DNA of 64,000 nucleotides from Amoebophrya sp. A120 (GCA_905178155.1 CAJINV010000002.1:2105216-2169215), one strand, 5' to 3'; shown: positions 1-63,885, numbered from the stretch's first letter. The notes: generated by a model from the letters alone, not told the origin. Program-made: numbers and translations.

Positions 1-3000
1 GAAGGTGGTTTTATCAAGAAAATTCTCTCCAACACCAACTTCCTTAAATGAAACACCCTCTGCCTCTCCCCCTGCCCGAACAACTTCGGGTCCGTTTGCT
101 CATTCAACACGTTCCAAAATTTCATCGCTTCGTAATCCGATTTCGACACGGTGGAGGTCGACTCATCCGTGGGCGCGACGGAGGAAGCCATTTGGTGCGC
201 GATTCGTTTGTATCAACTGTAAAAATGTCTGGGTCTGGAAGAATTCATGTTTGTCATGCTTGTCTGGCATGACTCTTAAATCTGTCATGCACGTTGCCCA
301 AGAGCTGCGTTTTTCTGTGATGCAGAAGCGCAGTTTGTCATGCAGAATAGGCAACACATAGGAGCTCAGAAACTTGTCATGCTGAGCCAGCATTTGTAGC
401 CTCATCATGAGACGCTACCCAGCATCACAAGTTCCCAGACCCAGACATTTTTACATTTGGTAGTTTCGAAAACGCGGGTGAGAAAGTTCCGATGAACTTC
501 AACGCTGCCGTTTGGAGAAAAATCGCGAGTTGCTTGTTCTTGATCTTCTCCTTGAAGAAGCCAAACTGCTGCGAAGCGTTCGTGGTGAGCAGTTTCTCGA
601 TCATCCCGGTAATTTCCCCCGCAGCTAATGCGAGTTGGAGAGGCGTGTCGCTCTCCGAGCTCCGCGGCCCAGTATGCACTGCAAAAGTATCGTACTCGTA
701 GTAATCGCAGTCATGCATTCGCATTACAAAGAAGAAAAGTGATGCGCACCCGTTCCGAAAATGTTGAAAGTTCAAAATTGAAAGCAAACCCACGCTGAAA
801 CTTCTGAAAGAAAAGGAAGGAAAGAAATTGCTACCCTAACTCAATCCGATGCGAGAAAAGAAGACTTCTTTATAGTGAAACAGCTGCAGGCCGCATGCTA
901 GTAGGTCTTAGACTTTCTAAGGTTTAGGTCGACGCTCAAGGCCCTAAGAGTAGTACTACTGCGCTAAGAAATAAAGAAGAACGACGGAGCTGCTGGATTT
1001 TAGTTTTTTCCCCCATACTGAGTGGAGCGCGTTCACCCTTGTAGTAATTACAATTACGCACTATGACTATATGGCACGTCGTAGCCTCTCGCTCCGTCCT
1101 GTAGATTGTATGCGCATAAGTAGATATCCGTAGCGTTCATAGTGATGAGCCCTAGGGAGACCCTACGGAGTAATAAAGTTGCTTTATAAGTCGAGCCGCT
1201 AATAGGAATGGGGGCGCTCAAAATCATGGCACTGCTAGCGGATTGAGATAAGGGGCAGAAGTAGTTGGGAGCATTTTAGGAGACGCCGGGGCACATATCC
1301 GGCGGGTGTCGGGCTACGTACCACACCCACAGTAGCCCACCAGCAAGACAAAAGCCGTGAAGCAGAAGCGAAGGGGCAGAGCGGCAAAGCAAGCACGGCG
1401 ACGATCACACCGGGGAGGCATCAGTGACAATTTTGCCAAGGCATCACGCAACTGAGAAGAGACGCGGACGGGTGCACTTTTTACATGACAAAGAAGAAAA
1501 GTGACGCGCACCCGTTCCGAAAATGTTGAAAGTTCAAAATTGAAAGCAAACCCACGCTGAAACTTCTGAAAGAAAAGGAAGGAAAGAAATTGCTACCCTA
1601 ACTCAATCCGATGCGAGAAAAGAAGACTTCTTTATAGTGAAACAGCTGCAGGCCGCATGCTAGTAGGTCTTAGACTTTCTAAGGTTTAGGTCGACGCTCA
1701 AGGCCCTAAGAGTAGTACTACTGCGCTAAGAAATAAAGAAGAACGACGGAGCTGCTGGATTTTTGTTTTTTCCCCCATACTGAGTGGAGCGTGTTCACCC
1801 TTGTAGTAATTACAAATTTACCTCTTAACCTAAATCCGCATTACAAATTCCATTTGTCATGCTGAGGGAATTTGTCATGCATTTATACGAGTACGATACT
1901 TTTGCAATCCATACTCAGCCGTTCCGAGTAACTCTGCTTTGCTCTTCCTGGTATTAGAAACTTTCTCCCCATTCGTCATGAGTTTCAAGATCATCAAGTC
2001 GCGGTCCATCACTCTCTTCTCTTCATCCGACACCGAAGACGGTATCACCCCCGGTGCGTAACTACCATTGTCGAATAACGGTAAAAGATCTTGAAAATCC
2101 ACGTTCTTATTAAAGTAACACTCCGCCAATTTCACCGCGGTGAACTCCGAAAACCCGCAAACCCGGTGGAGGTAATCCATCGAGATCGCCATTTCTACCT
2201 CTACCGGGGTTAGTTTCAGCGATTCGATTTCTTGGTGGAAAAGCTGCTGCTGGGAGACGAACGATTTCTGGTTTTTTAGTTGTTCCATCCGTTTCACGTT
2301 CACGTAAACCCACGCACGAAGCTTGTTCCGGAAGGGGACTATACTGTTTTTGTCGGAAAAGAGAAAACCGAATTGGGCCTTCAATTGGATCACTGCGTCA
2401 GCTGCAGGTCCTACGGTATTATTATTGTTGTTGACCGCGACTCTTTGCGCAATCTGCGTCACGTGCGGGAACCCGAGGTCCTTCTTCAGAGTTTCGATAT
2501 CGCAGTTCGCGAGTTGCAGAACTGCGTAGTACGTACTGGTTTGACCGTACTAAGGGGAAAAGTTCAAGAATAAGAAAACTGACAAAAAAATCAACACGTG
2601 ACTCATCGAGGTAAGTTCAGTGCACCTGTGTGCTGTTTTGTTTGCAAATGCTGCTCATCTCATTCTTGAAAAACACGCAACAAGAAAAGGCGGACATAAA
2701 AGGTCGCGCAGGAAATCAAGTCGGACTGCTTTCAGAAACGACTTGCCATGACGCTCCACCTGAAGAAGGTCTTACCTGTGCCGCGACGGGATACCAGACG
2801 CAATAAAATACTGAATAAGCTGACCTACCCAGGGAGGGGGACCCAATGCCCGAACGCCGAGACCCCGGAAACGGACACCATTTCCGGGACACTTTTCGCG
2901 CGGACACAAAAGGGGCGCCCTTTTCTGGTATTCTTGAAATTTTAACCGCACCTGAGTCGGTCGATTTGGCCAAAATCATGGGGGCCCCCAAATCCCGGAT

Positions 3001-5899
3001 TTGGGACCCCTTTGGCTGGACCCCCTTGGTCGTATTCTTGAGATTTTAACCAAGTCCCCGAGCATCATTTTTCAGAACTAGAACACAACTCAACAATTGG
3101 GCGCCTGTGTCGAAGGCAACAGGTGCCCGCCGTGGTGTATTTGGTGGCGGGAGAAAACACGCCGGGCCGCGTGTTCTTGGGTCTCCACTGTAGGCCTGCG
3201 TGGAGATTGCCAAAGCCGGCGCCTGAGTTTGTTTTTTGTGAATAGTTTCAGCATACTCATATTAGTACTGTTTACAAGAAATGACTCCATGAAGGTAACT
3301 AGTTTAGTGTGTAGAGATTAGCATTCTATTTCCGGGAGGAGAGGGCAAGGCGCCGAGTGCCTAGTGATGTTTTTTTGGTCTCTTGAGTGAAGTCCTAGCA
3401 GGGAAAGGCCCGGCTGTGGAGGCGATGGGATGCTCCGCCACCTGGGGCGACGATATCTGCTGGCTTACCACGTGCTGCCCGACTACCCGGCGATCCTCCC
3501 CTGCAACCTGGAACCGGGCGCCTGGCTCTGGCACTGCTCCAGGGCCAGGGTTGATTTTTTTGATAAAATTCGTATTCTTGAACTTTTCCCGTTAGTTAGA
3601 TCCTTCTTCAGCGTCTCAATATCGCAGTTCGCGAGTTGCAGAACTGCGTAGTATGTACTGGTTTCACCGCCACTCAAGGTGCTCAACAGAGTTGTGCTCA
3701 TTTGACTTTGTTGACTTTGGCGTGCTGCGAGAGAAGACGCGGAAGGTCGAGGTAACAGCTTGATGGCCGGATTGATGATATTACTTGTAGTTTGCGGGGG
3801 ACCACCTCCTTCGCTGGTGCCCGGTGGAGGAGGTACAACAGCATTTGTGCCTCCTCCTGCGTTGTTCATCTCTTCGTTGGCTCCACCTGGAGCAGCTGGT
3901 GCTGCGGCTGCTCCCGTTGTGGCCGTCCCAGGAACATTTGTTCCCACTGCACCACCATCTCGACGTCCAGTGTTTGCATTTTTGCCACTATTGCTTCTCA
4001 ACTCCAGAAACTTCGCGATCCGCAATGCGCCGCCGGGGGAAAGTAAACACTCTTCCCCGCAAAGAAAGGCCACGCACGCTTCGTAGGACAGTTCTTCTTC
4101 AATCTCGTCATACGCGTCGGCGGGCTCTTCACGTTGAGCAGGATATGGAAGCGTCAGAATCGAAATTGACAAAGTCGAAAAATTTGTGATGCATAAAATC
4201 GATACCAGTTGGAGCCTCAGCCTCCAAGTGGCGCATGACAAATTTCGGGAGCACCCAAATCCAGTCTGTCATGCTGTTTCGACAAAGAAGACTGCTCTCG
4301 TCATGCTACTCTGGCAGCGCGTTGCATACCCCTAAACAGGCTTGCAATCGGTCTCATTTGCCTGCTCCCCAACACAGGCCTTCAGTGCCCTACATTTCAC
4401 GCATCACAAGTTTTTCGATTTTGTCGATTTCGATTCTGACACATCCATACAGGACTCAACATCGGTAAGAAGTCCTGCTCGAAAATCGGTTTAGTGTTTT
4501 GATTCATGTTCATCTGCGTGTTTTTTGTCATGCTGTTCCGCCTCATGGTGTTGGTATTCATTTGATGTTCCGCGAATAAAAACTTGTCGATCATTTTCGA
4601 AGTTTCCTGCACCGTCAGTAACGGAAACGGGTTCGGCAGTTTATTCGGCCGCTGCGGGTCTAACGCGATGCCCTTGATGTTTTCCAAGTTCGCAAACACC
4701 TCCGCTTCCTCCTTCAACAGCATGTCCAATTTCGTCATGTAAGAGTCTGGTCCACCCCCCTTCGCCGACGAATCTTTCTCCGGTTTTAGAAAAAACAGGT
4801 ACACGAGAAAGGCCGCGGCGATCAGCACTGCGATGGCGATGCAGCCCAAAATGTACAAGACCGTTTTATTATTGTCCCCGGAAGATGATGTTGATGAGGG
4901 ACTTGTGTCTCCTGGGGGAGCCGTTATTGTTCTGGCTGCGTTATCAGGCACTGCAGCGGGAGGGCCACCGTTTGTCTTATCGTGTAGGTGTACTTTTTTA
5001 TTCTTCTTGCCCTCCAGTTCAGAAACTTGGAAAAATGTTTTTGTGCTGGAATCTTCGTTGGAATTCCTGCTCCTGCTGTTGTGATTTTCGTTTGATATTT
5101 CGTCGTCCCCGGGTTGATTTCGTCTCGTATTTTCATCGTTTTCCTCGCCAACAACACCAGCAACATCCACCTGCTGCAGATCATCCACAGGAATTCTATG
5201 AGCCGTTTCTTCTTGTTGCGCGGTACTTCTTCTGCTCGTGGTCCTCTTTTGGCCATCATGCACTTGCAAGTCCGTGTCGTGACTCAGTTGTTCTAATTTT
5301 TGCACTATGCTTTCCTGGCGCTCCAGCTTTTGGTTTTGCTCCAGCTGCGCAGTGGGAGCGGCTTGGTTCCTGCTCTCCAAGAATTCTCCAGAAGCGGCAA
5401 GATCTTCTTCTTGTGCAGCTTCACCTCTTTCCGTTCTTTCCCGGAGCAGAAGGTCCTGCGCCGACAAAGCTCCTGCTGGGAAAAGATTACCGTCTTCATC
5501 CTCCACCTTTATTTTGATTTTCGTACTAACGCCGTCTACTTCATCTTGCCCTGATGCTCTGTGACTCGATTTCGATCTTTTGTTGTGCACTTTTTTCTTC
5601 CGGTTGTTCTTCGGCTGAATGATGTGCGTGTGGCGATTATTCTTGTTACCGTTCACCATGGTCGTGTAGGCGTCGGCGAACTGGTAAAAAAATCCGCCAT
5701 GCTGCTGGGCGAGGGATAGGAGACTACAAGAGGTCAGGAACATGGTTCTAGTACTTCTGGTGGCGCACATGTTGGCTGCAGCAGAGAGGGGTTTTTCTTT
5801 ATGAATTTTTGAAGCTGCCATTTTGCTGGTGTTTTCGAAAACTTGAAATTTCAAATGGGAGACCGCAGGGGAAAGGCTTCCTAAGTGCGTTCTTTTCAA
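1..5899 (-). CDS. Multi-exon gene, hypothetical single-pass membrane protein (3' end runs off the window)
   Basis: Exons about 5899-4450, 4143-3598, 2475-1914, 672-463 and 210-1 join in frame after removal of the inserts: LSP|AQREE, KKDL|GFPHVTQ, GTA|GPRSS, AFSK|RIAHQ. TM helix VLYILGCIAIAVLIAAAFLVYLFFL. Start codon uncertain. Confidence 0.75.
211..462. mobile_element. Introner, family A
   Basis: TIR TATCAACTGTAAAAATGTCTGGGTCTGG / CCAGACCCAGACATTTTTACATTTGGTA; flanks GTTTG/GTTTC; removal is in frame. Confidence 0.9.
673..1913. mobile_element. Introner, family B, carrying a nested insertion
   Basis: TIR TATGCACTGCAAAAGTATCGTACTCGTA / TACGAGTACGATACTTTTGCAATCCATA; flanks CCCAG/CTCAG; removal is in frame. 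Uninterrupted B copies are about 150 bp. Confidence 0.9.
724..1815. mobile_element. Non-autonomous element with about 330-bp direct terminal repeats (TRIM-like or YR-type), nested in an introner
   Basis: 724-1053 and 1486-1815 are near-identical direct repeats (offset 762) around a core of about 430 bp with no convincing ORF. Repeat 2 runs TGACA...TTACA. Confidence 0.8.
2476..3669. repeat. 72-bp direct duplication of exon sequence (2476-2547 and 3598-3669) flanking the TIR element
   Basis: 66/72 identical; both copies encode G[E/Q]TSTYYAVLQLANCDIETLKKDL on the minus strand. Confidence 0.9.
2549..3596. mobile_element. About 1.05-kb non-autonomous TIR element inside a coding exon
   Basis: About 46-bp imperfect TIR ACTAAGGGGAAAAGTTCAAGAATAAG...AAAAAAATCAAC / GTTGATTTTTTT...CGTATTCTTGAACTTTTCCCGTTAGT. 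Palindrome-rich interior, no credible ORF. Confidence 0.8.
4144..4449. mobile_element. Introner, family D
   Basis: TIR TATGGAAGCGTCAGAATCGAAATTGACAAA / TTTGTCGATTTCGATTCTGACACATCCATA; perfect TSD CAGGA; same 306-bp length and highly similar to 29369-29674. Confidence 0.95.
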
Positions 5900-6834: not shown

Positions 6835-9800
6835 TCATTTTCTCCCCATAATGAGCCCCTCTGCGTGGTTCAGCGCCTCCGCAATATCCGCGTTCACCTC
6901 GTTAGAACTCCGGAAAAATTTCCCCTCCTTCCGCTTCCTCGCCTCGTCCTTCATCTTCAACAGCGGGCTCGGCACCGGCATCTTCCGGAACCGGATCACG
7001 GGTTTTGCCGGACTCTCATCCTTGATCAAGTGCGACCAATCCTTCTCGGCGGAAAACCAGGCGGAAACTTTGGGAAAGATTTTCAAGGATTCCGCGTCGA
7101 TCCTCGCTAAATACAGCGTTTTCTTCAACGTCTCGTTGCTCATCGCTTCCAACCGGTATTTCAAAATTCCCGGATTGTTGTCTCCGGCGAACTCATCGTT
7201 CTGCGAGTTCTCCTTCAGACACTTCTGGATCACCTGCCTTAACTTCGGAAAATCGATTTCGTAGTCGTTCCACTCTTCGAACGCATCGGGGTTCCAGCTC
7301 AACGGTTCTTGGTTCCCGACCTCTTTGTTCATGAACTTCCTCACGATCCGCTTCGCCTCCATGGGCTTCGGGCCTTTGTTTCTCTTCGGTGAGGTGTCAC
7401 TATCGTCATCGGAACTGCTGTGTTTATCCAGTCCCCGGTTGCTCATCATCGCCATGACATCGTCGTGTCCAGGCCGGGCACCAGCACCGCCTCCGATTTT
7501 GAAACCAAACGGCGAATCAGTATTGTTATCCGGCGAACTTCCACCACCATAACCTCCTCCCCGCAGCGGCGATTTAATCCCACTCAAAACGTTCCCGAGT
7601 TTCTGGAAATTCCCCGCGATCGCCCCGCCAATGTGCGCCACCGCGGTGCCGAGACCCGGGGCTTTGCCCGTGCCGTCGTCGCTGCTGCTGTCCGATTCAC
7701 CGTCTAGTTTTTTCTCTTTTGTCCCGTCCGAAAACGGATTCAACGCGTTTACCAACTCCCCCATCGCCTTCCCCATGCTATAACCCGCTCAGATGTAGTT
7801 ACAATCTCAAACGTTACGAATAGAATCTGGAATTTGTGTTGCAAAATGCGCAACATCTGGCCTACTCCCAAAGGAGCGCGCATGACAAGTTTCGGGACTC
7901 CAAACCTCATGAGAAATATCTGACGAAATTTGTATTGCAAAAAGCCCAAGTCTCTATATGGTACTCATGTTGTTCATGCAAGACAAATTCCAGATTCTAT
8001 TGTAACGTTTGAGATTGTAACATCTGAGCAAGCAATACATGTCGGCTTTCTTGTCTAGTTTCTTCTGCTCCATCATCACTTTTTGCTGCTCCTTCTTTTG
8101 CTGGTGAATGGAGCTCCACTTCGCGAACTGCGTTTCGTTATGCATTGCAAACATGTCTGGGTCTGGAAAGTTGGAACTTGTAATGCTGGGCTTACATTCC
8201 TATGAAATCTGTCTCTGTGTTGCAGGACCTACAAAAAGTCTCAAAAACGCTGTTTCTACTCATGCGGGCTGCGCATAAGACAGCGTCCTTCAAACTTGTC
8301 ACACTTGGCTGCATTTGGAAGTGTTTGTCATCATCTACAGTTCAGCATCACAAGTTTATTCCAGATCCAGACATATTTGCAATCCATACTCGTTCCGCTT
8401 GTACACGCTCTTCGCCTTCGAAAGCTTCGCGGCGAGTTTGTCCATCTCCGCGTTATCTCCCCGTAACTGCGCTATCCAGAAAAAAACACCCATCCACATC
8501 CAAGAATTTGTCATGCAAAACATACATAAAGTCCTGTGTTTGTCATGCAAAAAGTGGATGTGAGTGGGTTTTTTTCTGTGGATATGCGCCCGGATCATTT
8601 TCCCCCGGATCTGTGCCTGGATTTGCACCGCCGCCTGGTCTATCAAATGCAAAAATGTCGGGGTCTGGAAACTTGTAATGCTGCGTTGGGAATAGTGAAT
8701 GCTCTGTAATGCACAGGCAAGCATGAGAAATATCTATGTTGCGTTTTTCGCACGACAAAGACAATGACAAACTGCGTTTTTGCATGATAGGCAAAAGGGT
8801 CTCTTCTTGGACACGCATCACAAACTTTTTGGTCATGACAGACAAGCATGACAAGTCTCAAAGTCTTCCAGACCCAAACATTTTTGCATTTGATATGGTC
8901 GATCTTCCGCTTTTTCCGTTGGAGGAACGGCCCGGGATTCTTCGGCAACCCGACCAGTTTCAACTGCAATCGTATGTCTTTCGGGAGCAGGTAGCTGTAA
9001 TCTTTATCCGGACGCAAGATCGACCTCGCAACGTTCGCCCCGAACGGATCTTTACCGTCTTCCCCGACGTCTTCACTGGAGCTTTCGTGTTTGTTGTAGT
9101 CGATCCGGTTGTCTAATCTCTTCCCTTTCACTTTCACCTCGACCTTCGCATTCAACTTCTTCCTCTTCACCTTTGTAAATTGGTGCTTCAGTTCCGTTTT
9201 GCTACCCGCTTCCGGCCACAAACCCAAATCCTCCGCGTCAATCCCTTTTTTGTAGAGATACCGAGCGACAAGATTCGGTTGCTGGTTCTTCTCCTGCAGA
9301 AAAAAATCTGAAGTTCCCTTCATCCCAGTATTCACCCCCGCTTTGAAATCTTGGTTCCGGTTGGTCTTCTCAAAGTCTGATTCCTGGTACACCGTCATTG
9401 TATCCACCCCCAGCATCTTCAAAACCCGAGATAATTTCGCAAAATTTATCTCGTAGTTTACCCACTGGAACCCCTTCTTCCCGTCGATTGCCGGGTCGGG
9501 CAAAGGGACGGTATTCAACTCCTTCTGGACCCCCTTGGGCAAATCCGGCATTCTTCTCCGCAAAAACGGCCCGGGTCGTAGTGTCAGTTCCAGCGCCAAC
9601 ACCGGCTTCTGCAGATTCATCAAGTACGCGTAATTCGCCACCGGCCCGGGCATCTGCGCGCCGACTGCGTAAGCGGCTGATTATCCTGAGTAAAAACGTC
9701 CCCACCTCCCCAGAGTTGTGATGCAAATGTGCAATGACAGGAACATTTGTAATGCGCAGCTCCATGAAAGGTATTTTCAAGCGTGTTTTGGAATTTGTAA

Positions 9801-12800
9801 TGCTGCAAACAGGGCGAGAAAGTGGCTTTCTCATGCGGCTTCCCTTGCCAACCAGCACTACACTGTCACTGCAGAGGGAAACTTGTCATGCACAGCTTCC
9901 AAAACTTCGAGATTTGTGATGGAAGATTCCCAACTTGACTCTGGGGTAGGATGAATGTTTTTGCTCAGGATACTGATGCTTTGTGCTTCTCCGATTTTTC
10001 CGCATCCGCCTTCCGCAAACTCGCGCCCCACCCGTTTTTGAACCAATTCCGATCTTTTTCCTCCTCGATTTGGTCGATCGCGTCGGGGATGAACTTTTTC
10101 ACGTCGTCGTCAGGGAGTAAATGCTCCCCCATCGCGCGCTCGTACGGTGTGGGAAAGATCTATCCTGTGCAAAAGTATCGTACTCGTAGTAATTGCAATC
10201 ATGCATTACAAATCCTTTGCTAAAGGTAAATCCGCATTACAAATTTTTTCTCATGCTGAGAAAATTTGTCATGCATTTATACGAGTACGATACTTTTGCA
10301 GTTCATAAGATCCCCAGGGTCGCAACGTCCACGTTGTTCATGTAGAGCGCGCGGGCTACTTCATCATCGGAGAGTAAGTAAAAATCCAGTTTCTGTTCCT
10401 TCGCGAGTAACTCCATCTCCCGCTGTTCCTCTTCCGCGGTATGTTTCCCAAACTCGTAACCCTCCGCCATCATGGCAGCTTTCGCCCCCGCAGCAAGCGC
10501 TTTCTCTCCCCGCGCGACTCCAATGTTTTCCGCGGATTTCTTTTCCTGTTCCGCGATCTCCTTCATGATCCGCTCCTGCTCCTCTTTTTCGAGTAGTTCA
10601 AGAGATTTTTCGAAAAAATCCCGTAAAGGGGTTAAAAATTTCCCCGGGTCGTCCGGATCCCGTTGTATGACCGGAAACCCCGTTTCCGCATCGATCGCGC
10701 AGTGAATAACCGGACAGCCGGTATTCGGGTCGATGTCCATCAACGGGAAGCCCTTGACGTCCACCGGTAGTAACAACACGCCCCACTTTTTCACGATCTG
10801 CAAATTCGGAAAATTCGGATTTTGCGGATCTACCGGGATTAGCGGCTGTCCTAAGCCGCTTCTCGGGATTTCCAGCTCGCCCGTTTCCATGTTCATCGGC
10901 ATAATCGGTAGTTTCGTAACCGGGTCGTAATTCCGAAACAGTTGCTTCTCATCCCTGGTTATGAATTGCAAATATACCACCTCTGTCTGGAAACTTGTGA
11001 TGCAAGAAAGGGAATAGTGAGCAAACTGTAACGCGCTGCGAAGCATGAGAAGTTTTTCCGTGGTTCTGGGTTCTTGCGTATTCCGCATGAGAAAAAGTGT
11101 TTTTGCATGACAGGCAAGAGGAGGTCTTCGCGGTCACGCAATACAGAGCTCAGAATCTGAATCATGCCGGACTAGCATGACAAATCTCGGAATCATCTCC
11201 CAGACCCAGACATATTTGCAGTTGATACCCGGATTGTACGGCTTCGTAGGGTACCCCTCGTTGTCAAAAGCGAGGATCTATCCTGTGCAAAAGTATCGTA
11301 CTCGTAATGATTGCATTTATGCATTACAAATCTCGTCCATCCCAAGGTAAAACAGCATGACAACTTCCATTTGTCATGCTGAGGTAGATTGTAATGCAAT
11401 TACTACTAGTACGATGCTTTTGCAATTCATAGGATCAGTGGACCTTGGCAGTTCGGATCGGGGTTCACGTATTCCCCCAAAATCCCCCGCGCGTCCACCT
11501 CTCCGTGCGCGTCTTGCTCCTCGGTACCGCCGATAGAAGCTTCTCCTGCTGGACCAGCACCTGCTGATCCTGTCCCCTCCGGTTGTTGGTCTGCAGTCGC
11601 GCCCATCTTAATCTGCATATTCAAGACGTCATCCGATTTCCCTGTGGTTCCACTGCTCTTACCTATCCCTCCCGACTGCCCCGCCTGTTGCGAGCCCCCA
11701 GCACCACTCCCGCCTCCACCTCCCTGTGCCAGCCCCAGCATATCCACCGATGCGCCCGCCTTCGCAATTGGGAGCTTTTTAATCACGGATTGCGGGTCTT
11801 TGTACTTCGGAATCCCCTTCTTCTTCGGCGGCGCTTTCTTCATCTTTGGCGGGATTTTGTGCTTCTTCGCGAATCGCTGATTTTGCGCTGCGGCTTTCTG
11901 CTTCGCGGCCGTCATCGCTGCTTTTTTTGCCTTCGCTTTCGCCATTTTTACCAACTCCTGTTGCTCCAAAACCGCCAAACCATTCTGCACTTCCGCCATG
12001 GCCTGCTCTAGCTGCAGACCCCGTTGGGTCAATTGCTCGCCGAACTGGAGCTGTTCGGGGGAGATGTCGTCCCCCAGCATTTGTAACTCCTGTAAAGCGT
12101 TCACGATCTGCGCGTACTCCTCTTGAATAGCCTGGCCCTGCTGCATCAACTGCTGCATCTGCGGTGTCGGGGTGACTTTCATCGCGTTTTCGTCATCGGA
12201 GTCGAAAAAGAGAAAGGGACTGGAAGGCGGTAGTTTTTTGTCGTCATCTACTTCTCTATGTCTGGCGTTTTCGTTCAGCACTTCGTCGTCCACCTCGTCA
12301 ACTGATTTGTCTACTCGTCTTGCAGATGAAGATGCTGTTATTAATGCTGCTGTAGAAGGGACAGGGGGCGCAGATGCTGGTCCTCGTCGCAAAAGCGGCG
12401 AAGTGGCTGATATGTTGGACGAGCTTGTACTGCAGCTAATGAGAGGACTTACACCTGCGGCAAGTCCTGAAGAACGACCTAATTGTGCTTCGTCTGCTGG
12501 TTGTGGTTCTTGTTCTTCATCCTCAGGAAAGAACATGAAAACTTTCTTCCCAGCACTGCTCACCACTTCCCGCGGCTTTATTTCCTTTTCCAGCTTCTCT
12601 TTCTTCGTGACGCTCCCCTGCTCGTCCGTCCCCGTGTCTATCGGCAAGACAAATTTGATCTTTTTCTCCGCCAGCCCCTCCGAAATCCAGTTCAACTTTG
12701 CTTTAGTTTCCCTTTTCGCCGGCGGCGGGCCAAAACGAACTCGCCTGCTCGGACTGATATCAGCCTGTTCGATTTCGGTCAGAATTTCTGATGCGGACGA

Positions 12801-37279: not shown

Positions 37280-37688
37280 AGAACGATGTGAATCCATCAC
37301 AAAGCAAACTATCCAGCGAGACCTGCGGACTACGTCCGCGCTGGCTCCTTCCCCGACCCCACTCAGAGGGGTGGAAGACCAACAACTCCAGGCATTAGCT
37401 TCTAGGGATCTGCCAGCCCATATACAAAAACGGACGGGGGGAAACTCCCTCCAGTCACTCCACGAAAAGGCTCTACCAGGGTAGATGTGTCATTAATTTA
37501 TACGAAACAAACTTATTCCTTCGCTCTTGAATTGTCTTGTTGAAACTAAAATTGAAATTTGTCATGCTGCAAAGCAGATTCGCATCAAATCACGGGGGCA
37601 AGTTTGAATTTGTAAGTGCTACTTCATCTGTACATTAAAAGTATTGCAAAGTACTGCAACTGCTACTCTACTACCATAAAAAAATCGG

Positions 37689-50664: not shown

Positions 50665-53478
50665 CCTCGGTGCCGATGGTCTTTTTTAGTGGTGTTCAAG
50701 AACACCGGGCGGGCTGCTTCATCTCCGCTTGGTCCGTCATCGCTGCAAATTCACAAGCGGCAGCTCTACTGGGTCGTGATCGTCGTCGTGAAGATGATGG
50801 TGCGTCGGTTAAAGTACTTACTTATTTTCTTCCGGAGCCACCTCTCGTTCTCCAACCCCTGCCAGCCTTAGAGTTCGGAATTCACTGCGACCTCAAACAA
50901 CAAGAACAATGTGAATAATTAATCGGGGGACATTCAGGGTGGAACTGATACTGAACAACAGATCATGAAAAGCAAAACAAGCTACATGTGAAAATAACAG
51001 GTGGAGCTCCGACAGCTACTGGGGTAAAGACTGCATTTATCATTGTAGATGAAGGATTTCGTACTGGCCTTCGCCTCGTAGCTTACTGATGTCGTACCTG
51101 CATTCTCATTGATGATTAGTTCGAGCGGGGCTCGGCACAACTCCCTCCTCCGACGCGCGGCAGGAATAGCCTGCCCTGATACCCTATTGGTAACGTCGTT
51201 GACTGAGGCCAGGTTTTTTCGTCATTCTTATTTCAAGTTTCTGTTACAACAAAATCCGATTATAGCATGGGGATACATCTCTTCAAGAAGCTGCTTTGTT
51301 CCACAGCCTCTGGAACAAAGCGGGTCAGTTGCCGTTTATACTTTTTTTTTCGTATCTAGGGGGTACTACTAGGTCGTGACAAAGGGTGCGGGTGGCGTCT
51401 GTAGTATCACAGTGGTAGTTGACATGGGATGATTCAATTATTGATTTGCAATGAAATCAAAAGTCTAGACGAGCCGCGGCAGCAGAAGTAATGTAGTGAT
51501 TAAACGCAGTGTCAGTTACACTTCCATGATCTGCGAGTGGTGTACGACTAGTAGCAGATGCACGACATCTTCACGACCTCACGCCTACTATCTTCTCCGA
51601 AGACAGCGCAGAGGTGCTGGACGAGAGGGCGACGCGATCAGAAGTACATGTTTGTACAACTTGTGTCGTGCCAAAAATTTACTGCTGCTAGTAGAGCTAC
51701 CAGCCGCTGCTACTGCTAGACCGACGAAGCGGTTACCTGATGGCAGGGACAGAAGAAGGATGGACGAGCAACAGATGATAAAAAAGTAAGAGCGCAAAAT
51801 GACCGACACGAGTAGTTCACGAAGCTTCCATCCTATGTTTCAGTATCATGCTCGCAAACATGCTAGAAAATCAAAATTCAGACGGAAAATAAAGAACGAC
51901 TGCGTTACCGAAGAGGAAGAGGACTTCACTCGCTACACCAAATCTATTCAGACCGAACTGCACCTGACCTGCAACGACGGACTACGACTTCTAGTGAGGA
52001 AATGCTTTATTTGTGACAGTAGTTAGACGTACGCATGGAGCTCTTGCATTAAGATGTTAGTCTTTCTCTTGCTTATTATATTCTTTGGCATGATTGAGTA
52101 AGTAGTCCTCTCGGCGCATGATCCACTGTCGGCGGAATAATTGGCAGGTGGATTTTGTAAGCACGGCCGACGTTGCACCTGACCTTCTAGGATCTATTCA
52201 TTTCAGCTGATCATGCGCTCTACTTAAATCGGGTTCTTCTTCTATGCTGATAAACGAAAATAGAGATGGAACTAGTAAACTGCTACTGCAAAGATGAACT
52301 AACAAACGAAAGAACCCTGTAAACAATGATCTGCAGATATACTTTTTTCTATGCTTGATGTGTTGTCTCTCAAATCTTTCTTCGTTCTGGTGGGATGGCG
52401 AGCACTAGCGCTACAACTCTACTTTACGGCAAGAATCCTTTCGTCGGTCTGATCTAGACATACAATAAAGTATTTTTAGACCCGGATCTTCTTGTCAGCT
52501 GCCTTTGTGCAGCACTAGCATTCGAAATAAATACTTGTTGCGCATCCACACCTCTACTCGGCGGCATAGAAATTCAAGTATGCGGGAATAAACGAAAAAG
52601 TTGTACTGAAATGAATCACACCCGAGAAAAAAAGTTGTAAAAGGGAATTGAATACAGACGAAATTTGATGTCACGCTACACCTTCGAGGGCGAAAAACTG
52701 ATTTTTGTGCGTTGCTTGAATCGATGCAAAACAGAATGAGAATGGATTGATGAATGTTGAAAGCTCAAACCGCGGCGGGCAAAAAAGAAAAACTCTGAAA
52801 AAGTCATGAAACAGAAATGGTTTGGAATTTACTTTATTTTACTATGCTTCAGGTAATGTTGTTCTGTTGCCAATTCTACGTATATCAAACTTCAAATTGA
52901 TGATGATGTGCTTCAAATGAAAAATTGAATTTGTGCTTTTGCGTCTGAAAAAAATGAAAAAGGCGTGAAAAAAAAACTACAACTAGTGAAAAAAAAACGA
53001 ATCTTGTTTGTTTGTTTGTTAGTGATGGAGTCGTGGTTTCCGTGTGAAGGGTTTACCTTCCTCTCAAGATGCTAGTGCTAGTTCAAGAAAGATACAAGGT
53101 GGGTACAGCAGCTGTGGCCTCGTAAGCCTGAGAAAAAGAAAAAGTTAAGATTAGAGTTGATGAAAAGTTAAGAGGTCGGTGCTAAAAGTTAAAAGTCTAC
53201 TGAAAAGTTGGGAAGGATACAAAGCAGTGCTGTTCTAAAAAGTTGAAGTGTAGTCCTGTTTTTCGTTGCTTCTACATGAAAAAAGTTACGAAATCGGATG
53301 GGTGGGTGCTATCAAATTCTCCTGATTCGAAATATACCGCGTAAAAATCCATAGAGGGACAAATTGAAATTAGTGCTTTGACCTTTGCCAATGGCACCTC
53401 TGATGTGGATGCAATTTAACGTGCTGGTAGTACCGCCGGCAGTCTTCGGACATTCCATGTGCCTGAGCCTGTGCTTGC

Positions 53479-56400
53479 TCACGCCACTTCGTTTTTTTTC
53501 TCCTCCTGCACAACTTCATCTTCTAGGGGGGACGAAGGTGAAGCTGTGCTGCTTGGTGTCGGCACGATGGACGAGTGCTTGTCGCGTCTGGATAACTCTT
53601 CCGGTGCAGAAGTAGCCAAGAGCTCGTCGTCATGTTCTGCCGTGGATGAGGATGGTGCTGCGGCGGCCTGCGCTTCCTTCCGCTGGGAAAAGCTTCTCCC
53701 GACGATACCGACCCCGTCTAGTCCCCTGGGCGAAGTCGGGCCTCGTGGTGTTCCAAGGACGTGTCAAAGGCAAAAGTGTCGCAGCCGTAGCAGCAGCTTC
53801 CAGCATCACAACTCGGCATGGGGATGGCCCATGTCTTCATCCCAATGCAACATGGGTGGCTAGTCACTCATAGCCATACATTCCTTTACTACATCAATAT
53901 TGGATGAAGACGGTGAACGCCGGGGGAGGTCATTACTTATTTGGAATGCAGGAACGAAGCACTAACACATGATCATGCGAAGCTATGATTACATGCTCAT
54001 TCCGGAAACGGATCGACTGCTTTAACAACTGCGACAGCACTTTTGCGAGACATAGATCGCCAGAACCCGCCGTCTCCGTCATACCCCCCGGAGGAAATGA
54101 CAATGCAGCAGGACCGCGTCGAGGGCTGGAGGAGGCCACCGGTGGCTCACCGGGCACTGAAGCGGATGCTTGTGGAACCTGTAGTAGTATTTTTATCGTG
54201 TTGCACCTGTCCTACGTCTGATGTACAACTTTGTCCAAGAACGCTGTTGTCATCTAAGCACCACAACTCTGATCGCACTCTATGCCACTAAATATTCTGG
54301 ACATGAAAACGTTCCAGATTTGCCTATTGGTGTGTTCCGCTAGTCGGGTAAGATGCAGCTCGCTATTCCTAATATAATCATTCTTTACGGGACTTATATC
54401 CGGTACTGGCACAACCGACGAAACAAGACAAGTCACGCGTCGACACTAGAAGAACGAGAAGATGAAAAGAAATGCAAATGGTAACATGAAATATTGAAGA
54501 ACAATAAATCTGCAATTTTGATGTTGTAAGCATACAGCTATTGGCACCTGCTCCACTTCCAGGTCTTGTTGATGAGGAGTTTGTTCTCTCCCGTGATGTA
54601 ACTGATCTATTTGCGGTTGCCCGGATCGAGGGTCCACTCCTGCGGCTTCTTGCACTTCCACCTGTTGTGTAAAAACAATGTCACATGGGCCAAAGCTTCC
54701 GCATGGAAACATTTCGTCTTGCTACAACTGAGCAAAACAAAACGTGTCGGTTTCCATGTAGACATGTTGTTTTTCAACTAGCCACTGCCTTCTGGTACCT
54801 AGTATTCAGCACCTTTCGCGCCCCAAGAGTGAGAGAGCATGCAAATAAGCGTTGTGAAATCTCAGACGGAAGTTTAACAATCTCGCACTTTAGCTGAAAG
54901 CAGCAAACTGCAAGGTTTTTTCTAATGGTGCACGCATCCTGCGAGGCATGGGTGTTGGATGAAGAAAGTTGTTGAGGCGCCGCTTATCTATTTATACTCT
55001 ATGTATCACCGTCAAAAGAGAGTACCCTTGGCTCCTGGGAGTGGAAATTCGCCAAGCCCAGCTGGAGTTGGGCCATCTGAGTTGTTTATGCACGAAAGAC
55101 ATGTTGTCCCCGTCCCGAAATGCAAGATTTCTAGTCAGATGTCCGCGCAAACATCTGTTGCAACAGACCAAAACGCTTATGACCCAGTTTCTTCGTACTG
55201 AACAATCTGACTATGCCTGGCCACTGACCGATGAACGTCAGGATGTCATGTTGTGATTCTCCATCCTGCTGCCCGTGCCTTCGCGGGCACACAGTTGCAG
55301 TGAAAGCAAGATTTTTGGAGAGCTGATGTCGCAGCCTAAATGTAAATCTCCATCTCGATCATCTTCTTGCATGAACAGAAATGCTTCAGACGGTGACATC
55401 ACGATCTTGTTTGCTTGTGATACCCCGAGAGTGTCGGTTTGTTCCACCGCTTCCAACGGCGGCAATGTCGGAAGCTTCACCATGTCACTATCCTTAGTAA
55501 AAAAATCAAGGCCATTACCTGTATCTAGTAGATCTACTGCTTCATACGGCATGCACACACGTACTTGAACTTGCTCGCGCAGAGAAGATTTCGCACATGC
55601 AACTGAAATCTGATCATTCAATCATCGGTGCCCCGCGAAAATGACGGGCGTCTCATTCGTTTTTTTGCGGACAAACTTTCGACTTGTTTGTCAAAGTGCT
55701 CCCTTTGTGTTCGGCAAGAGCCACGCATCCTCACGCAAACTCGCTGCCTTGGAGGCTGCCAGCAAGGCGGCAACTTCGCGCGAGACACAAACAGCAGCTC
55801 TTTGAGCGAAACGCAATCTGGAGCTTGTGTGCGTGAACAAGCATAGAGCATATGAATAGATGTGTCACAAGAACATTCTTTAAAAGAATGAGTGTCTGCC
55901 TGCGTTTTTCTCCAGAGCTTAATTTACACTGCAAGTTCTTCCAGCAACGGCGAACAACACATACTTGCTCCTCGAGAATTCGCTTGTTGAGGCCTGGATT
56001 TTACTTACGCGGGATACGTCGTGGCGAAATGCGAGACCCACTCCAGAACTTGGGTCATTTCAGTCAAAAGACCCTGAAGCTTTTCACCCCCATTTCCCTC
56101 CTGTAGCGTTTCTATTCGGCGTGTTCCTGCCTCTAGATCATACGCTCCAGGCACGATCTGCTGATACACCACGTTTGTAACTGCATTGTTCCACCGGCTT
56201 TGGTACTCTTGAACCGTCGCGCGCAGACCACTAAACTGGTCTTCCAACACTGCTGGGTTTGCGGCTTGCGTATGCGAGTGCAACACCCACCCTCGCCTCC
56301 CTCATCAAGTTTCATTTGGAAATCAAAATCATGGAAAGAATGCAAAATATAAAATCCAGATCCACTCAAATTCAAGAACATTCGCTTCTTTATGTGCATT

Positions 56401-59400
56401 GCCTGCAGGACAGCGACAGCACCGGAACCCAAACAATTTCTTTTAGTACGCAAGTCCGTGTACGGTTTTGCATTTGCCGTGCGGGCGCCTTCTGTGACAT
56501 TGTTTGCGTTCCTGCTCCTGCCCTAGCACTGAGGGGAGGAGGGCCATGGTGCACTGTCATATTGCATCTCAAATTTGCAGTAGCTTGCTGCGCAGGTCTC
56601 TTTCTTGCCTTCCTGCTTGTGTCCCTCGCAATACTTAATTCCGTCGTGTTGTAGCCGTTTTAGTTGTTCTTGTTTCGTCTCCTCCACCTCCGGCAGGTCG
56701 CTACCTGCACCTGGGCTAATATTGCGGATGGACGACGTTTGCCCACTGGCAGTCACGCAATAGTAGCGATGGGCAAAATCGAGCTTATCATCCACCTGCT
56801 TGTACATGAGTGGCGTCTGGATCGTGCCGCGTGTGGAAAACAAGCTCCGTTTGTTGCAATACGCGTGCCCTTTTTTCACCAAATCGCTTGCGTCTGGGGC
56901 AAGCGCTAAGAACTGCCTGGCTTCGACGTGCATCACCAGCTGACTGGCGTCTATGTGTGACACTACCCGATTCGGATTGTTGTTGAACAAGACAAAATGC
57001 TGAATTGTGACAGCCGGTTTTATTTCTTGCTCCAAGTTTTTTTCCGTCTCTCGTCCCCCTTGCTCTCTTGACACAATCGCCCCGCTACCGCCAGGCCCTG
57101 GCATTATCTCTTTCGGTTTTGGTACTTCTTGCATCCTCTCCCACGCTTCTACGATGTGGTTCCGCAACACCCAGGAGTCCGTCTGCCACCCTTTTTTCGG
57201 CAGCCGCGGCCCGGTTTCCGCGGTCCACGGATTAGTGAACCCCCGCACCTTTGCCAGCGACCGATCGACATTGCGCTGCCACAAAAGCACCTTCTCGACA
57301 AGGTTGGCCCCAATCCAAATGTCGTATATGTCGTTCAGCGCAAACCGCGTGGAGTCGCGTTCGAAGCCGGATCTGGCTTTTTTGCACTCCGCCTGCGTCA
57401 TTGGTTTCAGGCCACTTGACACGCATCGCGTCACATCGTCAAGCCAATCGGCGTATCCCAATGGGCTTAGCGTATTCTCCCCAAGAACGTGGTACTCTTC
57501 TAGTAGACGTTGCGCCTGTGCGTAGTTATTCAGTTCTTCCACATCGAGACGCGGGGGCCTAGCGTTCTCGAAAACGCCCCATACAGTTTTAGGAATGTTC
57601 GTCATTTTCTCCTGTGCCGCCATAGGCAACGAACGAAGGCCGCGCTTATCCGGGACAAAAATAATTGTATGTGTAGTGTACAATATACAAACAATGGAGC
57701 ATTCGAATTTCGAGTGCTCCATTGTTTGGAGAAGCATCACAATTTTTTTGTTTGGCAAGATGTTCTGCACCGCTAGTACGTGAAATCATCCATCATGAAA
57801 AGGTGTGGGACGATGCACAAAATGATGAGTGCAGCCGGTTTTCTCGTCTTGCACATTCTGTGTTACAAACAACCGGCACAAAGACTAACTACACGACAGT
57901 TTTTTTGTTGCGTAGCACTTCCGAGAAAACCAGTACGCGAGTTCCATTCCGTCCTGCATCTTCTTCGGTATCAAGTACAAGCATGTCTGCCGGGTCTCGA
58001 AGATTGGAACAATTTTTGTAATGCTGAACTCCGATTATACAACTCGCCTTGCACTCTGAGCATTTATTATGCATGTGGTCGTGGTGGAAAACCACTGCTT
58101 GGTTTTTGCGATTCATGAGGCACGTCGCGCACTACAGAGCCCTTCAAAACGTTGTTCGGCTTGGCTGACTACTACGCTCAGCTTGTTGTCGGTTGGTCAT
58201 GCACTACGTGCACTTAATAAACGTCTTTCGAGACCCGGAAAATTTCTTCAAAGTCGATACCCAATGTCATTTTCAACTTCTCGCCAAAAGCGTTTCCTGG
58301 TGCTTCCACAAGTTTTTTTATCCGAAGCTGCGACGTCGCATCATCTTGCTGAGCGTCCTTGTCTTGAGCACCAGAAGCGATTACAAAAACGCGTGCCAGA
58401 TTCGTAAGCCGCTCTTCTGATTTTGCTTGTACCTCTTCGACCTGCTGAGGGTCCTCGACGTCCTTGAGTTTTTCCAGATCGGTTACCAGCTCCTCTGCCA
58501 TCTCTTGTAGGTCATCTGTTCGGGTGAATTTACTTCCCCTTCCCGTAATTGTCTTCAGAGCAGGAAAAGCGTATTTTTCGAGATACGACACTTTTCCCTT
58601 CTCGCTCCGCAGCAAAACCGGACATTGTTCCGTGGCCCCCGCAGGTGGCACGATTGCCTCCTTTATCGTTTTGAAAAAAACTAGCATATTCCTTCATGGA
58701 CATGGAGGAGCCATGCAGAAGAGGCAGAAAGGTGATGCAGAAATCGCACTTCCGTAAAATACGAATTTTTCTACATCTTTGTCTTTATTGTGCTGTTTGG
58801 ATTTTTTCAATAAAGGTCATGGGAAATATGCTAGTGCTTCTCTGTGTAGTATCCAAACTTCCGCCCTCATGAGGGTTCTTCGGGGTTTTCGTTTTTGTAA
58901 GCTCGTCGAAGATGCGTGCGGTCAGCAGAGGATCTTGAGCGCGTAGTTGATTTTGATACAACTCACTGCTGCGCTTGATAATTTCGTCTTCATCGGCCGG
59001 CGGAAGAGAGGAATCGTGCTGGAGATCAAACTCATTTTTCGCGCGTTTATACAGCTCATCACTACGCTTGATGATTGTGTCGATGTCCATTCCGGCCGAG
59101 TTGAGAAACAACCACGCTTATACATATTCAAATATGTCATCTGGGTCGTGAAGCGTTCAAATAACTTGTGAAAAATTTGATGCTCACACCTCTGGACCAG
59201 ACAAAAATCTGTGTTGCATGACCAGTGCCACAAGTTGTTTCCCGCTTCTCAATACGCTAAGAGCGAGGATGCCAGGCGGAGCAGACAAGAAGTTGTAGAA
59301 GAAGCGTTCGCTAACACGCCTGTCATGCACTGTGTGCATTCCAGCCCATCTACCTCTAAATCTACTCTTCGAGAACCCGAGGACATATTTCTTGAATTTG

Positions 59401-61882
59401 CAATTGATAACGCAAGAACCTTGAACATTTCCTGGGGCTCGATCAGGTCATCTACCAGAAACCTGTGAACGTGATCTTTATCGTCATCTGCCGTCGGGGG
59501 GGCGGGATCGAGGCCCGCCATTTTGATCATGTTGTCTGCCAGGCTGCTCCGGTATGCGAGGGAAAAGTTGTTGATGTAGTTGCTGCAGCAAGCACACAAG
59601 GACCATGACTAAACCCCTGCATGCATCATGCACACACATGTGCCAACATGTGACAATGTACTCAGTGTCGTCCGTGCCGCGACTTGGAAAAATAAAGAGG
59701 AGAGGGGACTACTAGAAAGACGGGGGTCACAACGTAGCTTAGACCAGAATGTTTGTACAAGTAGCAAAACATCATGAATTGTCGATGATGTGCGTAGAGA
59801 CCCTTGGCCCGGCTGCAGCAGGGCAACACTTCAAAAAAGAATTTGCTCGGATACTTTTCCCGTTCCAGTGTTCCCGAACGTGATGAAGAGTTTCTGGCGA
59901 CCTGCGAACGTGTTCCCAACGTCCTCCGGCCGGCTGTTCGTGAACGGGTACTGGGCGCGGTTGCCCCGAGGCTCGTAAATGTGTTGTCTCCTCAAATTCT
60001 TCTCCCCCTGCTTCCAATGCTCTACAGCCCCCGTGTCTGTCACACGCGTCACACAAGGCTGGAAAAATTCGTTCGCACCTTCGCCTTCCAATTGCAGCAT
60101 CGCGTCCGTGTCAAAGTTCTTCGGCAGCCACAGGTGGGTGAGCAGAAACGGCCCCACTTGCGTAGCAGTTCCGCCTGGATTCATTGCTGCTGCCATCGTG
60201 CTGGTGCCCTGCTTCTGCAAAAATCCGATCGCCGTCGTGCCGGGTTGTTCTTGCAAAGGCGCCTGATTGATGTTGTCAGCACCGACGTCGTCTAGGGTGC
60301 GGTTGAGAGAGTAAAGCATTGCAGGTCCGCCTGCTCGTGGAGAAAGAACATCATGAAAATCTTTTGGTTGCGAGAATGAGAAATCGTGTTTTTCATGTTG
60401 TTGTTCCACCGCGAGAAGTTGCAGTGCCACGGCTGCTTGTCCGTCTGCTGACTCGCTCCCTGTGTCGTCCTGCAAAAGGGTCGTGCGGCCACTCGGCGTG
60501 ATCGCAGAGGACGCGGTGGATGCAGTAACTTCTGCGTCTTCATCTTCCAACGCGCTTGAAGAAGAAAATGATGTTGTAGAAGTGGTCCTTGCATTTCGGT
60601 TTCCATAATTTGCCCCCGTACTATCACTGTCCTCTCGGTCAACATCAACGTCTTGAAAATCGTAATCATTTTCATTCGACGGGGTCAGTGCCTGCTGCTC
60701 CGCGGCATTTGTTGCTTCCTCGCCGGAGAAATTCAGAGCATCGGACGCCAGAACATCTACTTGCTCACCCTCAGCCTCTTCGTTCGACGACGCTCTTGTA
60801 CCCTGGTCGTGCTCTGCGCGAGAAGGATCGGAAGATGAATCTTCGGAAGTAGACCCCTCCACCTGCTGGTCGAGATTTTCGCTTTTCAGCTGCGGCGCTT
60901 CCGCTTCTTGCGAATCTTCACCGTCCTCAGTTGTGTCGTCATCTTCATCGTCGTCTTCGTCACGAGTGAACGTCTCGTCATGGAGATTGTCGTGATGTGG
61001 TTCGGGTTCCTGAGCAAGAGGTTCTTCTTGGCGTTCTCGCTCAGGCTCCTTGCTCACCTCGACGCCGTGGGCAGGTTTCTTGCCGTTCTTTGGAGTTCCC
61101 CGTGGCGCCAGAAACTGCTTCGACGAAGACATCGTGAAGTTGCGGGAAAAAAACCCGTCGAACCACGAAGACACGTAGGAAGTCGAAGTGGCAGTAGAAG
61201 TTGAAGGTGTAGCACTTGATGTTGTACTAGTCGTCCGTGGACCTCCATTCTGCTGCGAACCGCTATCTTGAACGTCGACCACCACGGGAGGAGTTTTTGC
61301 GGAGCTCATCTTAGTAGACTGGGTGCCGACGTGACCTTCTTCTTCATCTTGAGCAACCTTGCTGTCGAGCAGCTTGTAGGCGAAAATGCCGGGGGTCGTG
61401 AGAGTAGAAAAATCTTCGCCAAAGCAGGTCAAGAGAAGCAGGAGGCGGGAGAAGCACAAAAGTTGTACTCCTTTCGGAAATAAAACCGCGGACCACGTCG
61501 AAGCTGCGATCGGACCACGAGCAGGCCCGGCACGACAGGTCGTGGTGCTGCAGAAACTGAAAGACCGGGCGGAATGACAAAATGCATCCATGTCATTTCC
61601 TCGCTTGACTTTGTGCCGCTTGCAGAAGTTGTTCTCGTTCTGCTGTTGACTGAGGAATCGCGCCACAGCAGACCACCACGACGCAGCACCAGCGGCGACT
61701 GGTGCAGGGGGGTCGTTGGATTTAGTCACGCCGGTCCGGTTCTTCTTTTGCTGGCCTCCCTCCACTTCTTCCATGATCGGAAGGGTGAGACGCCGTTGCA
61801 GCTTCTGCGCCGAGGACGTCTGCATTAACATCGTCTTTTTTAAGTTTTGACGTTTAGGTTTACGCAAATTATGCTCGTCCAC
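53479..61882 (-). CDS. P-loop kinase-like multidomain protein, paralogue C; 3' exons only partly resolved
   Basis: Hydrophobic segment, then MSSSKQFLAPR; KLFITFGNTGTGK (about 59855-59893) continues as SSLADNMIKMAG (about 59548); LVDDLIEPQ; FTNPW..GPRLP..TDSWVLRN; CAASYCKFE. Putative last exon ends EEKKNEVA* at 53479. Confidence 0.6.
59119..59409. mobile_element. Decayed introner, family A
   Basis: TATACATATTCAAATATGTCATCTGGGT / ACCCGAGGACATATTT..GCAATTGATA; flanks ACGCT/ACGCA; join FKVLA|WLFLNS. Confidence 0.75.
59553..59853. mobile_element. Decayed introner-like intron splitting the Walker A motif
   Basis: TATGCGAG...CTCGGATA termini; removal of 306 nt joins GTGK to SSLAD in frame. Confidence 0.6.
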
Positions 61883-63606: not shown

Positions 63607-63885
63607 TATCCTGAGTAAAAACGTACCCACACCAGAGTTGTCATGCGACTTTGCCATGACAGGAACATTTGTGATGCGCAACCCCATGACAGGCATTTTC
63701 AATCGTGTTTGGGAACTTGTAATGCTGTAAACAGGATTAGCAGATCGATTTGTGATGCGGCTTTCCTTGCTACCTTGCACTACCTTACGGACTGAAACTT
63801 GTCATGCGTGACTCACAAAACTCCTAGGTTTGTGTTGCAAAATCCCCATCCTGACTCTGGTGTGGGTACGTTTTTACTCAGGATA
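63607..63885. mobile_element. Young introner, family C, with perfect 32-bp TIRs; host exon not identified
   Basis: TATCCTGAGTAAAAACGTACCCACACCAGAGT / ACTCTGGTGTGGGTACGTTTTTACTCAGGATA; perfect TSD TCTGA. Confidence 0.95.

Follow-up and report, generated by a model that had tools for sequence, protein, structure and literature searches.

The introner elements of Amoebophrya sp. A120 are described in the accessible text of Farhat 2021 (PMC7789003) as non-canonical introns with terminal inverted repeats (TIRs) that start with TAT, followed by seven less-conserved bases and a run of A. They carry direct repeats of 3-5 nt (one example is of 5 bp) located 1-5 nt from the splice sites, and they form many families without an internal transposase, the mechanism of removal being left open. 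More than 60% of the introns in these parasites are non-canonical, and their removal is stated there to be unknown; repeat length and splice position are reported as variable, and general mobilisation by a transposase is ruled out (PMC7789003). The present analysis concerns 36 inverted-repeat elements in a 64,000-nt stretch of the A120 genome (GCA_905178155.1, CAJINV010000002.1:2105216-2169215; the window) and argues, with a probability of about 0.72, for their removal at the RNA level, measured from the terminal stem, with a fixed cut inside the target-site duplication (TSD).

The window elements have TIRs starting with TAT, a run of A near positions 11-15 and a boundary repeat within the 3-5 nt range, and they are very likely the same as the A120 introner elements of Farhat 2021. 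In contrast to the accessible description, the TSD is uniformly 5 bp, the removed segment is the element plus 5 nt, the cut probably lies inside the TSD, orientation is free, and a motif and a target preference are common to most families. One TTA...TAA element (41806) resembles the A25 motif of the same paper (PMC7789003). The elements themselves are known, and the addition is a specific, testable splice code. The novelty of the grammar proposed in an earlier note on this stretch is reduced accordingly, in that the TAT start and an example of a 5-bp repeat are in Farhat 2021 and "5-bp TSD, TA/TA termini" is given for one A120 family in the accessible part of Gozashti 2025; no paper was found that places the cut or reports the orientation independence or the shared motif and target preference, parts of which subscription papers and the supplements of Farhat 2021 (S19-S25, tables) may hold.

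The nonconventional introns of Euglena, as far as the accessible parts of the two papers go (PMC12501133, PMC11282704), are alike in the absence of GT-AG, in a terminal stem with a fixed triplet, in fixed spacers that are short on the 5' side and longer on the 3' side, in direct repeats at the junctions, and in a proposed origin from MITEs (miniature transposable elements with inverted repeats); circular excision products are also reported. In Euglena the code reads N3-CDG...CHG-N5-6 and the exon starts with a purine, whereas the code proposed here is N1(2)-TAT...ATA-N4(3), with no base rule seen at the cut and with spacers that sum to the TSD, in an unrelated lineage. The CDG/CHG motif with spacers of 3 and 5-6 nt is absent from the window elements and a terminal RNA stem is predicted, and the system works like the Euglena stem-and-spacer code without belonging to it.

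The spliceosomal introners of Micromonas and Aureococcus, in the accessible accounts, are likewise MITE-like, with TIRs and a TSD, and leave the mRNA unchanged by insertion, but they carry or co-opt canonical splice sites, whereas the window elements lack such sites and occur in both orientations. The internal eliminated sequences (IESs) of Paramecium are short, transposon-derived and bounded by TA, and are removed precisely, the TA being duplicated and one TA left behind. The window elements, by contrast, contain the TA and duplicate a free 5-mer, and their removal is apparently tied to transcript direction. The Ginger and Tdd transposons share the TIRs and, in TDD-4 and TDD-5, the 5-bp TSD; however, in the accessible text Ginger has TGTNR termini and mostly 4-bp TSDs (PMC2836005), whereas the termini here are TAT and no coding element was found.

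The elements and removal of the element plus 5 nt

An unbiased scan reveals 35 pairs of inverted-repeat arms in the window, compared with 0-1 in each of five base shuffles. Directed scans and inspection give 36 elements, which occupy 10,869 nt (17%) of the window; 35 start with TAT, 34 end with ATA, and 35 are intragenic. The 5-bp flanks are identical at 5/5 positions in 23 elements (22 of the TAT type and the TTA...TAA element 41806), at 4/5 in eight, at 3/5 in one, at 2/5 in two and at 1/5 in two. These counts carry selection since a TSD filter of 3/5 or better was used to find most elements; elements 38997 and 41179 joined the count after the frames had been viewed, and six element pairs with an unclear frame (43796, 55004, two at 57647 and two at 58664) are excluded from it. 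Sorted by eye, the TIRs fall into seven TAT-type classes and one TTA type. The elements are transposons of the non-autonomous, inverted-repeat kind, and their target duplication is 5 bp long: like MITEs, they are short (median 262 nt in a second assembly), multicopy and flanked by a TSD of fixed length, with TIRs and no open reading frame (ORF).

At all 35 intragenic sites, the longest open frame is obtained upon removal of the element plus 5 nt, compared with plus 3 and plus 4, in a test that resolves the removed length modulo 3 only. A GT-AG or GC-AG pair that would remove the element plus 5 nt can be placed in one of the 36 (44837). The largest frame thus opened, of 2194 codons, has one relative (P0001) in a search of representative proteins, which aligns without a gap over the joint at 10161; no Pfam family is found in the three exons scanned, and no full-length relative is found among proteins of 1489-4250 residues.

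Host genes and elements of the window (coordinates; strand where assigned; description; number of matching TSD positions):

6838..16522, minus strand: host gene, 2194-codon frame after removal of 13 elements plus 5 nt each
37689..42971, minus strand: host gene, 1227-codon frame across four elements, open only with a cut at least 3 nt into the TSD
44352..50685, minus strand: host gene, 1522-codon frame after removal of six elements
211..462: class A element, ends GTA, TSD 4/5
673..1913: long class B element with an internal 332-bp duplication, no coding ORF seen, TSD 4/5
4144..4449: class C element, TSD 5/5
7779..8037: class E element, TSD 4/5, skipped as element plus 5 in X5, first base of the upstream TSD copy kept
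8139..8388: class A element, TSD 4/5, skipped as element plus 5 in X5, last base of the downstream TSD copy kept
8473..8584: class G element, the shortest (112 nt), TSD 5/5, skipped as element plus 5 in X5
8641..8895: class A element oriented opposite to 8139, TSD 5/5, skipped as element plus 5 in X5
9682..9972: class D element, TSD 5/5
10161..10307: class B element, TSD 5/5, P0001 gapless across the joint
10960..11227: class A element, TSD decayed (2/5), 2194-codon frame kept by plus 5
11279..11431: class B element, TSD 5/5
13987..14295: class D element, TSD 5/5
14363..14682: class C element, TSD 4/5
14915..15134: class F element, TSD 5/5
15390..15608: class G element, TSD 5/5
16084..16318: class E element, TSD 5/5
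16899..17168: class A element, TSD 4/5
17196..17340: class B element, TSD 5/5
17387..17625: class F element, TSD 5/5
23727..24161: class D element, TSD 5/5
24390..24539: class B element, TSD 5/5
26223..26531: class C element, TSD 5/5
29369..29674: class C element, TSD 5/5
38193..38385: decayed element, TSD 1/5, in-frame stop when the whole downstream copy stays
38997..39414: decayed element, TSD 1/5, frame restored by plus 5
41179..41468: decayed element, TSD 2/5, free of an in-frame stop only when 3 nt or more of the upstream copy stay
41806..42483: TTA...TAA element of 678 nt that contains 11-bp repeats of its own, TSD 5/5, same plus-5 rule
44837..45197: class E element, TSD 5/5, the sole one with a GT-AG placement
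45708..46054: class G element, TSD 3/5
46367..46617: class A element, TSD 5/5
46654..46893: class E element oriented opposite to 16084 and 44837, TSD 5/5
46944..47152: class G element, TSD 5/5
47267..47596: class D element, TSD 5/5
56271..56561: class F element, TSD 4/5
59119..59409: decayed class A-like element, TSD 4/5
63607..63885: class D element, TSD 5/5, within no open frame (non-coding site)

Two sequencing runs (X5 and X9) were examined over 6700-26690. A 2245-nt contig of X5 skips 264, 255, 117 and 260 nt at four consecutive joints (7773 to 8038, 8134 to 8390, 8467 to 8585 and 8635 to 8896), each skip being equal to the element plus 5 nt with no letters added, and none of the four joints allows a GT-AG placement. 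The exon between the joints totals 226 nt, equal to the 226-nt gap in the record, and the oppositely oriented copies 8139 and 8641 are both removed from this one contig. The depth of X5 falls to zero in several bins and covers genes, a patchy, gene-centred pattern in which X5 behaves as RNA would; non-canonical introns are missing from the transcript at these four joints of one probable RNA contig. Among the joints listed (15 of 25), the other eleven are of other sizes, lie within or between element copies, and are read as other copies of the element families.

The raw RNA run X9 gives no coverage of the genes over the same interval and is probably from another strain. Its reads match only 26418-26531, the end of element 26223, at about 95-99%; 401 of them continue into a different flank, and 183 show, just before 26418, an apparent template-switch adapter. 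These reads are a cDNA start inside an unspliced relative of element 26223 at another locus, and they may be copies of one molecule.

The counts of the earlier note (36 elements, most of them without a usable GT-AG pair, and 22 perfect TAT-type repeats) are reproduced, and the TIR classes are in line with its figure of at least eight families. Its frame restoration at 34 of 35 junctions becomes 35 of 35, its one miss possibly being 41179, and the removed length that it proposed to measure in transcripts is the element plus 5 nt at the four X5 joints, including those at the mismatched repeats of 7779 and 8139.

An independent set of elements was obtained by a scan with the family-A end motif, which yielded 152 stretches, all on contigs of one other assembly (16 of 64 collection parts scanned), and 150 loci (L001-L150, 410 kb) were analyzed. 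With no TSD filter applied, 209 of 264 elements show a perfect 5-bp repeat and 28 show one mismatch, compared with three perfect 4-bp repeats and no 6-bp repeat. Although no terminus was assumed, T, A and T begin 189-192 of the 194 family-A ends. When frames are called blindly for each flank separately, which is confident in 53 of 298 elements (245 dropped), the plus-5 class is found in 49 of 51 same-strand cases, and in 32 of 34 in the loci alone. If the elements were retained, 269 of 273 frames would be broken; a GT/GC-AG pair can be placed in 19 of 273 elements. Mismatches between TSD copies are more frequent at wobble sites (39/479) than elsewhere (37/881; p=0.004), an approximately 2:1 enrichment that is expected because each position would have one coding and one free copy, and this bias shows selection. 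The element-bearing loci L070, L012, L031, L052, L027 and L060 include the RNA polymerase largest subunit, SNF2, KIN17, TRIP4, a beta-oxidation multifunctional enzyme and a PseB-like dehydratase; conserved genes too therefore lie in element-bearing DNA.

Position of the cut and the proposed removal mechanism

The position of the cut is expressed as k, the number of upstream-TSD bases retained in the upstream exon. Mismatched TSD copies at the X5 joints give k of at least 1 at 7779 and at most 4 at 8139, and the 1227-codon frame gives k of at least 1 at 38193 and at least 3 at 41179. Stops arise at k=0-2 only (41179, 38193, L062:525, L062:4983 and L068:3892) and never at k=3-5. For the 53 mismatched elements with blind plus-5 frames (of 60 with frames, among 101 mismatched), the summed codon likelihood for k=0 to 5 is 2.9, 2.6, 13.6, 20.7, 24.1 and 25.5; in the loci only, it is 17-18 at k=4-5 versus 3-4 at k=0-1. 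In a codon-likelihood test by TSD position, the upstream copy is favoured at positions 2-4 (pooled p=0.001). The retained copy appears to be the upstream one in the transcript direction, at loci on either strand and with elements either way round. Additionally, a PseB homolog reads M-H-G-G at the junction L060:3513, which fits k=1-4 (the first GTG being read as M), and the homolog junctions of SNF2 and enoyl-CoA hydratase do not tell the cut positions apart; one further homolog search gave no match. An excess of mismatches at TSD position 1 (10 of 13 elements) was rejected in a larger set, in which positions 1-5 have 22, 17, 11, 13 and 13.

The cut thus likely falls inside the TSD: in the transcript direction, the removed segment would extend 1 (or 2) nt upstream of TAT and 4 (or 3) nt downstream of ATA. 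Under a single rule k would be 3 or 4, the latter being the likelier value, at which the intron is N-TAT...ATA-NNNN, and the same offset would apply at all elements. The single rule of the earlier note, measured from the stem end and independent of splice dinucleotides, is retained and narrowed to this cut.

Among clusters of at least four copies, 108 copies run one way and 55 the other, and no single orientation relative to the transcript, as is characteristic of spliceosomal introners, is observed. The junction dinucleotides are free, with no base rule seen at the cut. The plus-5 rule is still obeyed where only 1-2 of 5 repeat positions match (10960, 38193, 38997 and 41179), which indicates that the repeat is left over from insertion and does not act as the signal. 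The same elements bear on a sliding cut, in which RNA removal is always of the element plus 5 nt and individual molecules are cut at different points of the TSD, with the match between the repeat copies as the guide instead of a fixed ruler: since they keep the plus-5 frame, repeat matching is not needed. Perfect repeats cannot place a cut, the bounds on k stem from different elements, and a single contig cannot reveal minor forms, all of which would be compatible with sliding; however, stops arise at low k only, and the roughly 2:1 enrichment at wobble sites agrees with a single free copy. A sliding cut is therefore regarded as unlikely, and it is the alternative that survives best.

The constant feature left is the stem, and the hairpin is probably the signal for a removal step that would act on RNA. 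Predicted RNA folds have z of at most -4 in 23 of 32 elements (12 shuffles each). In the mechanism proposed as likely, a machinery would measure from the base of the TAT:ATA hairpin in the pre-mRNA and cut 1 nt (or 2 nt) outside TAT and 4 nt (or 3 nt) outside ATA, leaving one target copy in place. A stem-binding nuclease and a ligase are slightly favoured as the catalyst, at little better than even odds against the spliceosome, because both intron ends can be any base and orientation is irrelevant. More tentatively, and as a possibility that we would rather doubt than expect, the elements may define a second, spliceosome-independent splicing pathway, in which a nuclease-ligase reads only the foot of the TAT:ATA (or TTA:TAA) hairpin and makes a 1+4 staggered cut that corresponds to the 5-bp stagger left by a single integrase-like transposase, and which would have arisen independently of the Euglena system. 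If true, the RNA-level step would reverse every insertion without a scar, whatever its orientation or phase. A code N1-TAT...ATA-N4 that is independent of orientation and junction makes the question of removal testable with existing RNA reads and, as in the Euglena work, with synthetic introns; such a code would also explain how transposons flood coding sequence at no cost and would represent a second, independent origin of stem-measured splicing.

Several observations weigh against stem-measured removal with a fixed internal cut. The RNA status of X5 is a guess with no record, the RNA support is one Logan contig, and contig-level data hide minor splice forms. The predicted pair probability of the terminal TAT:ATA is about 0.1-0.2 in four of the 32 elements (16899, 17196, 47267 and 59119), decayed elements with poor stems are still in frame, and seven of the 60 mismatched elements with blind frames, mostly with 0-2/5 matches, are not of the plus-5 class. 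The codon test is correct per site in only 60%, its pool of positions 2-4 was picked after the data had been viewed, the codon signal is absent at TSD position 1 (p=0.79), and position 4 by itself is not significant (p=0.15). By codon likelihood alone, 3693 of 5000 bootstraps select k=5, 1017 select k=4 and 265 select k=3, and k=5 is excluded solely by one RNA junction and one weak homolog.

Programmed DNA excision before gene expression, similar to that of the TA-bounded IESs of ciliates, would fit the symmetric TA-containing ends, the orientation independence and the exact restoration, and X5 is only guessed to be RNA. However, the retained copy appears to follow transcript direction on either contig strand, which disfavours a symmetric DNA reaction, blind to that direction; the elements are present in two assemblies, and the coverage of X5 is patchy and gene-centred. 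To our knowledge, no split between germline and soma exists in Amoebophrya, which is also counted against this explanation. Additionally, introns were called in the accessible text of Farhat 2021 from RNA-seq against element-bearing genomes (PMC7789003). The IES-like excision raised as an option in the earlier note consequently lacks support and is considered highly improbable.

A hairpin with a short direct repeat is a classic substrate for template switching, and the joints could accordingly be artefacts of a reverse transcriptase crossing repeat-flanked hairpins, with the mRNA keeping the elements and the genes being dead or bypassed by the ribosome. The frames of 2194, 1522 and 1227 codons, however, are open only after removal, elements lie in conserved genes (SNF2, KIN17, PseB-like and enoyl-CoA hydratase), and the wobble-biased mismatches show selection, so that this explanation is given as little credence as DNA excision. 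A test of ribosomal bypass was negative: bypass requires a shared in-frame codon, and mismatches outside wobble sites show no avoidance of it (25/544 versus 12/337, p=0.49). Finally, use of nearby cryptic GT/GC-AG sites by the ordinary spliceosome, for which a canonical-looking GT-AG intron in the same gene (16389-16526) and the presence of most spliceosome parts in the accessible account of Farhat 2021 (PMC7789003) could be adduced, is largely refuted by the four RNA joints of element plus 5 nt without a GT-AG placement, is possible by placement in only 1/36 and 19/273 elements, finds no orientation rule, and is barely credible.

Insertion, shared motif and target preference

The motif TGT[ACG][AT]TGC has 135 matches in the window, of which 118 lie inside element DNA (17% of the window). 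Its outermost copy lies 40-44 nt from the 5' end in 107 of 265 elements and from the 3' end in 96 of 265. Outside the element ends, the flanks show T at position -18 in 245 of 470 ends (background 0.22) and G at -16 in 218 of 470 (background 0.27), symmetrically on both sides; classes A, B and G show this preference, as do unclassified ends, and among the window ends T at -18 is found in 24 of 64 (p=0.012). The motif, TSD and target preference common to most families point to one or a few related transposases. One integrase-like transposase would serve most TAT families, binding the terminal TAT and the motif about 40-44 nt inside each end, and would favour targets that have a T 18 nt and a G 16 nt beyond the element ends. 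The subterminal motif could instead, or as well, be a branch site.

On the other side, the internal motif is absent from six of the 36 window elements, the target preference is absent in class E (1/16 ends) and weak in class D (13/42), and G at -16 is not enriched among the window ends (17/64). No transposase is found in 126 ORFs or six long elements (about 0.47 Mb examined), and none was found in A120 in the accessible text of Farhat 2021 (PMC7789003). The family-A end has no match in viral contigs. The shared transposase that the earlier note deduced from the common ends therefore gains indirect support, from the uniform TSD length, motif and target preference in most families, whereas the enzyme itself was not found. 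A lead for its source is the A120 family 38, which the accessible text lists as Ginger with "5-bp TSD, TA/TA Termini" and ORFs related to long terminal repeat elements, and which according to the same paper lacks Ginger termini and homology (PMC12130899).

The insertion phase is skewed in loci L001-L150, with 123 insertions in phase 2, 85 in phase 1 and 66 in phase 0; a target preference that lands on favoured codon positions could be the cause.

Other features of the window

The long element 673 contains a 332-bp duplication with 99% identity between its copies (722-1053 and 1484-1815). The region 2549-3596 (1048 nt) has inverted arms of 47 nt with neither TAT ends nor a 5-bp repeat and is possibly another type of intron; it is bordered by a 72-bp direct duplication (2476-2547 and 3598-3669), and the open frames on its two sides share one phase. 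Between two open frames, the stretch 57647-58980 holds several element-like ends, for which no pairing emerged, and a 41-nt hairpin (57688-57728); these are perhaps nested or decayed elements.

The candidate GT-AG intron at 16389-16526 would join frames of 307 and 2194 codons. Copies of the element motif that look decayed lie within it, and the candidate may have been an element long ago that has since become canonical.

The region 31400-37450 (approximately 6 kb) exhibits a strong skew of A over T, internal duplications and a 99-bp tandem repeat (36999-37278), has no Pfam match among its ORFs, and is possibly a decayed mobile element. An unbroken frame of 1079 codons at 19070-22306 encodes a sugar-transporter domain, the sole clear Pfam match among the 12 window exons scanned.

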